Source of the DNA: Escherichia coli
GTDB taxonomy: Bacteria > Pseudomonadota > Gammaproteobacteria > Enterobacterales > Enterobacteriaceae
NCBI RefSeq assembly: GCF_003334765.1
Contig: NZ_QOWT01000001.1
Length of the DNA: 64,000 nucleotides
Reading direction: 5' to 3' (one strand)
The notes beneath the pieces were generated by a model. That model did not search any database. It was not told where the DNA came from and worked only from the letters and a program-made list of their open reading frames with translations. Positions 30,979 to 32,355 of the stretch are shown here, in pieces. The stretch's first letter is position 1; every line of letters starts with the position of its first letter. A program made the position numbers and the translations under genes.

Positions 30979-30988
30979 AATATTAACC

Positions 30989-31011
30989 ACTTTAGTTACA
31001 ACATACTTATT
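30989..31011 (-). other. replication terminator site TerB (Tus-binding)
   Basis: The minus strand reads AATAAGTATGTTGTAACTAAAGT, the TerB 23-mer as I recall it, including the invariant GTTGTAAC core, 11 bp upstream of the tus start. Confidence 0.85.
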
Positions 31012-31053
31012 TTATAGCACAGTCGTGGTGACTTGACCATCGTGCGCGTAGTG

Positions 31054-32355
31054 TCAGGCAGAGGTAAATTGCGGGATGTTATGCCATAACGGCCAGCTAA
31101 ACGAGAAGCGGGCACCACCCAGTTCGCTGGTGTCACAATTAACCGTACCGCCCATTGCCAGTGCTATAGAGTGGACAATTGCCAGCCCCAGCCCGCAGCC
31201 GCCGGTTGAGCGATCCCGGCTGGGATCGAGGCGAACAAAAGGTTCAAAGATATGTTCGCGGTTTTCTGGGGCAATCCCTGGGCCATCATCCTCAACAATT
31301 AATGTCGCTCTATTCCCCGACAGTAGCAGGCTGGTTTCAACCGTTGAATGGCAGTACCGCAGGGCGTTATTGAGCAAATTATCCAGCACGCGCTCCATTA
31401 AGCGCATATCCAACGCCGCATAATGGCCTTGCACGAGCGTTTTTATCCGTACCGTTTTATCGGGCGTTACTGCCTGAATATCTGCCAGATGCGTTGACAG
31501 CCACAACGGCAGGTCTGGTTCGCTAAGATGAAGCTCGTTTTGTGGGCGATCGAGTCGGGCATAAGTCAGCAGCTCTTCAATTAAAGCTTCAAGTTGACTG
31601 ATATCACGATTCAACGCCTGGGATTCGGCGGCGCTCAGGTTATCGCTCATCTCCAGTCGATAACGCAGGCGCACTAACGGTGTTCGCAGTTCGTGAGCGA
31701 TACCGTCAATAAGCTGTTTTTTGCTGGCAATTAAGGCGTTGATATTGTCCGCCATCTGGTTAAATGCGACGCCAAGTCGTTCAAAGCTCGAACCCTCATC
31801 AAAGTGGATACGTTCATTGAGATGCCCATCGCCAAATCGTTGCGCCGCTGCTTCCAGTTTTAACATATCCTGCCAGTGCGGACGCATCCAGATAAACACC
31901 GGAAAGGCGAGGGAAATAGCAATAAAAGCGATCAGGGCGATATCCAGCAATCGCATCTGATGGAGATAATAAAGATAAGGAACAGGACCAACTGCCAGCA
32001 CGTAGTGGCTGCGCGGGATACGCTGCAAAAACGTGTACTGATCGTCCAGGGCGACAATTTCGCCGCCACGCAGTCGGTGCATGGAAATATCATCAAGATG
32101 GTATTTACTCAGTGGCTCGACACGCAGATCGAAAGAGAGATTTAAATCCATCTCTTTCAGAGTTTTACCCCAGTCGTGTGGGGGGATCTCACGCAATTCG
32201 CTGCGCATCAGATACAGCGAACTGTTCATCAAATCATCCAGCGACTGTTTGCCCGCGCGTTCGGCGGTAAATTTGTACACCAGCCCAACCAGCAGAGACA
32301 TCACAAGGAAGCAGACAAACAATAACAGGTAAAACTGGATAAACAGTTTTTTCAT
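31054..32355 (-). CDS. rstB: two-component sensor histidine kinase RstB
   Basis: 433 aa; two TM segments, HAMP, H-box GIAHELRTPL, HATPase motifs DDGPGI and GLGLAI. Confidence 0.92.
   Translation of the reverse strand: MKKLFIQFYLLLFVCFLVMSLLVGLVYKFTAERAGKQSLDDLMNSSLYLMRSELREIPPHDWGKTLKEMDLNLSFDLRVEPLSKYHLDDISMHRLRGGEIVALDDQYTFLQRIPRSHYVLAVGPVPYLYYLHQMRLLDIALIAFIAISLAFPVFIWMRPHWQDMLKLEAAAQRFGDGHLNERIHFDEGSSFERLGVAFNQMADNINALIASKKQLIDGIAHELRTPLVRLRYRLEMSDNLSAAESQALNRDISQLEALIEELLTYARLDRPQNELHLSEPDLPLWLSTHLADIQAVTPDKTVRIKTLVQGHYAALDMRLMERVLDNLLNNALRYCHSTVETSLLLSGNRATLIVEDDGPGIAPENREHIFEPFVRLDPSRDRSTGGCGLGLAIVHSIALAMGGTVNCDTSELGGARFSFSWPLWHNIPQFTSA

Follow-up and report, generated by a model that had tools for sequence, protein, structure and literature searches.

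Identity and position of the Ter site upstream of tus

The short region between rstB and tus in the stretch of E. coli DNA analyzed here (64,000 nucleotides, hereafter the window) raises three questions: whether it holds a Tus-binding replication terminator, which of the Ter sites this would be, and from which side it would stop a replication fork. An earlier note on this DNA had placed TerB beside the tus start. When the whole window was searched for the published 23-mer AATAAGTATGTTGTAACTAAAGT, one exact match (0 mismatches) was found on the minus strand, and it was still the sole match when up to 3 mismatches were allowed. None of 100 dinucleotide-preserving shuffles gave a match to TerB, and by chance none is expected even at 3 mismatches. 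An identical string is labeled 'terB' in PMC4752480, and the same string stands immediately before tus (b1610) in MG1655, which confirmed the assignment by direct comparison with published Ter sites. Two details of the note had to be corrected. The sequence that it gave as the 23-bp Ter consensus is present exactly, but the string is that of TerB itself: TerA differs from it at position 4 and TerC at several positions. Likewise, the span assigned to the site (30985-31055) does contain it, but is too wide and takes in nearly the whole rstB-tus intergenic region of 75 bp. The coordinates of the features are given in Table 1.

Table 1. Positions of TerB and neighboring features in the window, and of terminus landmarks in MG1655 (NC_000913.3).
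Feature	Sequence	Position	Strand	Basis or remark
Predicted sigma-70 tus promoter	Window	31011..31039	-	Manual sequence reading
TerB, 23-bp Tus-binding replication terminator	Window	30989..31011	-	Exact match to published terB
Spacer GGTTAATATT, 10 bp, TerB to tus ATG	Window	30979..30988	-	Sequence
tus, 309-aa DNA replication terminus site-binding protein	Window	30049..30978	-	PDB match, TIGR02648, annotation
rstB, upstream sensor-kinase gene	Window	31054..32355	-	ORF; MG1655 b1609
TerB	MG1655	1,684,226-1,684,248	+	Same 23-mer; tus begins at 1,684,259
TerC	MG1655	1,609,157-79	+	
dif	MG1655	1,590,750-77		
TerA (AATTAGTATGTTGTAACTAAAGT)	MG1655	1,341,745-67	-	
oriC	MG1655	3,925,744-975		

Mapping of the individual positions put Ter position 1 at 31011 and position 23 at 30989. 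The G.C(6) pair of position 6 falls at 31006, with G on the minus (Ter) strand and C on the plus strand of the window. The core GTTGTAAC of TerB, on whose integrity the note had staked its assignment, was free of mismatches (31002-30995, minus strand). The conserved Ter core consensus GNRNGTTGTAAYKA covers positions 6-19 (14 bp), and its sole perfect match in the window was GTATGTTGTAACTA at 30993-31006 on the minus strand. Read along this strand, the order of elements is TGGTCAAGTCACCACGACTGTGCTATAA-AATAAGTATGTTGTAACTAAAGT-GGTTAATATT-ATG, and the last Ter base lies at -11 relative to the A of the tus start codon (ATG, 30978-30976), in keeping with the minus-strand location upstream of tus that had been proposed. 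A putative weak Shine-Dalgarno-like motif, AGTGG, would span the 3′ end of Ter and the spacer.

The gene that follows encodes Tus. Residues 1-309 of its product align to residues 1-309 of Tus chain A in PDB 1ECR (E = 1.5e-208), and the full-length product also matches chain A of the Tus-Ter complexes 2EWJ, 2I05, and 2I06. Against the NCBIfam equivalog TIGR02648 (rep_term_tus) the product scored 549.9 bits (cutoff 178.3), and the gene is annotated as tus not only in MG1655 but in over 5,400 E. coli genomes. A longer version of the open reading frame (313 aa), which begins with GTG at 30990 within Ter positions 22-23, was rejected; neither RefSeq nor the crystal structures use this start. On the other side of the site, the stop codon of rstB occupies 31054-31056.

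The feature is almost certainly TerB of Escherichia coli, that is, a polar fork barrier and at the same time the operator of tus, with Tus binding, fork arrest, the C(6) lock, and autoregulation taken from the literature; no observation spoke against this assignment. TerB belongs to the high-affinity 23-bp sites to which Tus binds as a monomer. The TerB/tus autoregulatory terminator at this locus is already known. Characterization of TerB and Tus, of the C(6) lock, and of the autoregulation of tus dates back to about 1990-2006.

Placement in the terminus region and polarity

The window corresponds to the reverse complement of MG1655 from about 1,651,549 to 1,716,275, at 99.97% identity. Window positions 1-21369 match MG1655 1,716,275-1,694,907, and positions 21370-63688 match 1,693,867-1,651,549. 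With K-12 MG1655 the site shares the 23-bp sequence, the 10-bp spacer, the ATG, and the flanking order rstA-rstB-TerB-tus with convergent fumC; its orientation within the surrounding 64 kb is also the same, and the site itself shows no differences. In MG1655 coordinates, TerB is separated from TerC by 75 kb, on its origin-distal side, and from dif by 93 kb; the point opposite oriC is about 79 kb away. These distances bear out the placement of the window in the terminus region, which the note had deduced from the presence of the site. If the strain is collinear with MG1655 outside the window, dif would be found about 60 kb beyond its high-coordinate end. Independent support for a terminus location was provided by a single perfect matS site (GTGACRNYGTCAC) at 12262-12274, inside ydgJ, of which only about 0.015 are expected by chance in 64 kb. 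The matS sequence is the MatP-binding motif of the Ter macrodomain.

As Ter sites are polar, the orientation of TerB defines which fork is blocked, a matter that the note had raised and that could be settled from the published faces of the Tus-Ter complex together with the MG1655 mapping. The non-permissive end comprises positions 1-6, replisomes pause at A(4)-G(6), and the helicase moves 5′-3′ on the G(6) strand (PMC4499146). The excluded C(6) then flips into a pocket of Tus (PMC4499146; PMC8707476). With C(6) located at 31006 on the plus strand, TerB turns its non-permissive face toward higher window coordinates. In this orientation, TerB is predicted to block forks heading to lower window coordinates and to pass origin-derived forks.

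The mechanism that would operate at this site can be described as follows. A replisome arriving from low coordinates, that is, from the tus side with position 23, would meet the permissive face and pass Tus-TerB. Such a fork, moving toward higher coordinates, would in MG1655 terms be the anticlockwise fork from oriC. A replisome arriving from high coordinates, that is, from the rstB side with position 1, would meet the non-permissive face and be stopped. In this case DnaB, moving 5′ to 3′ on the G(6) strand (the minus strand of the window), would open the duplex as far as the G.C(6) pair, and C(6), once released on the plus strand, would flip into the cytosine pocket of Tus and lock the complex. 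For a clockwise fork that has passed dif, TerB would be the second barrier, after TerC, and forks could enter the terminus but not leave it. The MG1655 mapping gave the arrangement of a fork trap, with TerB and TerC on one strand, TerA on the other, and dif between TerA and TerC. According to PMC8707476, TerB is one of the sites (TerB, C, F, G, and J) that stop the clockwise fork. [quoted passage not shown] For strain IAI39, an inversion has been reported that takes in TerB and tus and preserves the trap.

Strand signals in the window pointed in the same direction. The overall GC skew was +0.023 and the cumulative skew climbed overall across the window; KOPS motifs (GGGNAGGG) were found twice on the plus strand and never on the minus strand, a count too small to be significant alone. 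Skew and KOPS together indicate that the plus strand of the window is the leading strand for origin-derived forks, which supports the orientation of TerB independently. Chi sites, present in a ratio of 5:4, were uninformative at this scale. As a landmark, TerB fixes the window in the terminus, gives the leading strand, and puts dif past the high-coordinate end, and thereby aids the reading of strand biases, matS, and KOPS.

Transcription approaches the site from either side. [quoted passage not shown] The genes tus, on the minus strand, and fumC, on the plus strand, are transcribed toward each other, with 3′ ends overlapping by 4 bp (30049-30052), so that fumC transcription heads for the permissive face through antisense tus.

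The predicted tus promoter, the operator role of TerB, and alternative readings

Manual reading of the sequence suggested a tus promoter with the -35 hexamer TGGTCA (31039-31034), a 17-bp spacer, and an extended -10 element TGcTATAAA (31019-31011), the last A of which is Ter position 1. Transcription of tus is predicted to start at about 31004, inside TerB. The automatic promoter scan returned only an intragenic hit inside tus and did not report the proposed promoter, because its rule demands a T at position 6 of the -10 hexamer. The predicted hexamers agree with published descriptions in which terB overlaps, or sits within, the tus promoter, and an extended -10 element ending on Ter position 1 fits the published autoregulation by Tus. 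The note had invoked this autoregulation as established knowledge, and it is indeed treated as such in those passages of PMC8707476 and PMC8347550 that cite Roecklein et al. 1991 and Roecklein & Kuempel 1992 for negative autoregulation of tus via TerB.

As an operator of tus, TerB would overlap the 3′ end of the -10 element and the predicted start and would end 10 bp before the ATG. From this overlap and spacing it would follow that bound Tus represses its own promoter, and Tus would be kept at a low, self-limited level. We also looked for signals at the RNA level. The fold of the intergenic transcript, in which an RNA element or an rstB terminator was sought, was no better than that of shuffled sequence (z = 0.13). 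With gathering thresholds imposed, no Rfam family was detected anywhere in the 64-kb window. A terminator was not found in the rstB-tus intergenic region, and the sole terminator-like hit was inside rstB. With no structure beyond chance and no Rfam family, there is no RNA-level element that would compete with the reading of the site as an operator.

Two other readings of the site have to be weighed. One Ter site is easily mistaken for another, as TerA, a high-affinity Tus site according to the literature, shares 22 of the 23 bases, the core, and the G.C(6) pair with TerB and differs only in having T instead of A at position 4. In addition, the bare 8-bp core GTTGTAAC occurs four times in the window, which is only modestly above chance. 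That the site is TerA or a further paralogue, or a chance or pseudo-Ter match, and not TerB, is nevertheless scarcely conceivable. Position 4 is A in the window, so that the match to TerB is exact, and the site has the synteny of MG1655 TerB, directly upstream of tus and between rstB and fumC. TerA, in contrast, is located between lapB and pyrF, 342 kb away, on the opposite strand and on the other side of dif, where it stops the anticlockwise fork; it does not adjoin tus and has no operator role. The three other cores (at 8465, 15569, and 55410) match only 12-15 of the 23 TerB positions and fail at the essential flank positions 18-19, one of them also lacking G(6), and were rejected as Ter sites. 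Hits to the 14-bp consensus with one mismatch were likewise discarded, as their number (4, vs. 1.9 expected) was at chance level. TerB is the only recognizable Ter site in the window.

The other reading accepts the site as TerB but regards it as essentially an operator of tus, with fork arrest being negligible under normal conditions because clockwise forks stop at TerC or fuse earlier. The overlap with the predicted -10 element and start, together with the fixed spacing of 10 bp, does point to a constraint tied to tus expression, and Goodall et al. noted that its place in the promoter could by itself account for the strong conservation around terB. Reviews also state that, of the non-permissive sites, the clockwise fork meets TerC first and uses it most. 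However, published two-dimensional gel and marker-frequency data indicate that forks pause significantly at TerB under natural conditions, oriZ strains have been reported to show a second step at terB, and a strong Tus ChIP signal, with a ChIP-seq peak, has been reported at TerB. Moreover, the site has the orientation required by the logic of the trap, which an operator alone would not need. A purely regulatory role is in our judgment very improbable, and TerB is better described as both a fork barrier and an operator. As a barrier it would act mainly as a back-up, since, according to published work, TerC, not TerB, takes most of the arrested clockwise forks.

Conservation, alleles, and differences from MG1655

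A 'vicinal' Ter that lies a short distance before the tus start codon and retains C(6) has been reported to be ancestral in Enterobacterales (Toft et al. 2021, PMC8707476), and the vicinal Ter sites of other Enterobacterales are reported to be 74-83% identical to E. coli TerB (PMC8707476). When 3.2 kb of sequence surrounding the site was used as a query, 5,425 of the 5,426 complete E. coli genomes searched gave matches, always annotated rstA-rstB-tus-fumC. The 36-mer consisting of Ter, spacer, and ATG was found in 5,424 of the 5,426 genomes, in 2,600 of them exactly, in 2,238 with one difference, and in 586 with two. For an allele alignment, 10 E. coli alleles were chosen across the identity range; within this small sample, changes inside Ter were confined to positions 2, 3, 4, and 7, and positions 5-6 and 8-23 were invariant. 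The spacer had a length of 10 bp in all 10 alleles and differed in sequence, by a single substitution, in only one, and the intergenic DNA upstream of Ter was more variable than Ter itself. This is the pattern expected for a surface contacted by Tus.

With T at position 7, the allele of the window is of the K-12 type, which about half of the complete E. coli genomes share. TerB of O157:H7, UTI89, and many others agrees with it in location, in the 10-bp spacer, and in positions 5-6 and 8-23, but has G in place of T at position 7, which gives GGATG as in TerC; some of these alleles also change positions 2-4. The allele of MS 69-1 additionally displayed a block of substitutions in the promoter spacer. 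Possibly, the T7/G7 and position 2-4 alleles might set a lineage-specific affinity for Tus, the autoregulatory set point, or the strength of the back-up barrier, but we consider this unlikely; nothing in the data requires it, as position 7 is 'N' in the Ter consensus.

A distinct arrangement was noted in the river-water isolate KTa005 (locus from NZ_CP147084.1, about 1571-3018). No rstB is annotated there upstream of tus, and a transposase gene of the ISEcp1 family is found about 245 bp before the tus ATG. When this locus was aligned with the window, similarity ended just upstream of the predicted tus -35 hexamer, whereas TerB, the -10 element, and tus were intact. ISEcp1 carries an outward promoter, so that regulation of tus might be altered in KTa005.

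MG1655 differs from the strain of the window in three respects: (i) 16 substitutions in total across the window; (ii) the presence of 1,039 bp of uidA/uidB; and (iii) an IS2E element in the integrase gene. At the window junction 21369/21370, MG1655 positions 1,693,868-1,694,906 are missing. This deletion takes the 3′ part of uidA (encoding beta-glucuronidase) and the 5′ end of uidB; its length is not a multiple of 3, and microhomology at the junction amounts to at most 1 nt. A truncated uidA open reading frame of 426 aa is left (20205-21485). As a contiguous match, the junction was found in none of the 5,426 complete E. coli genomes. From the deletion, the strain is predicted to be GUS-negative.

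Near its high-coordinate end, the window leaves the match to MG1655 exactly at the boundary of IS2E (MG1655 1,651,548). Its last 312 bases (63689-64000) contain an undisrupted Qin-type prophage integrase/excisionase region, whereas MG1655 has IS2E inside intQ. The undisrupted form is common to more than 2,500 E. coli genomes, including ATCC 8739, and its presence indicates that the strain is not K-12 itself, despite the near-identity elsewhere. Window positions 40000-64000 are 100% identical to several wild isolates (e.g. NCTC9100 and NCTC9087), which points to a natural strain close to K-12. Finally, staggered BLAST self-hits in the comparison with MG1655 revealed internal tandem repeats in rsxC (window 7181-7701), whose register is about 96 bp and whose identity is 87-91%.
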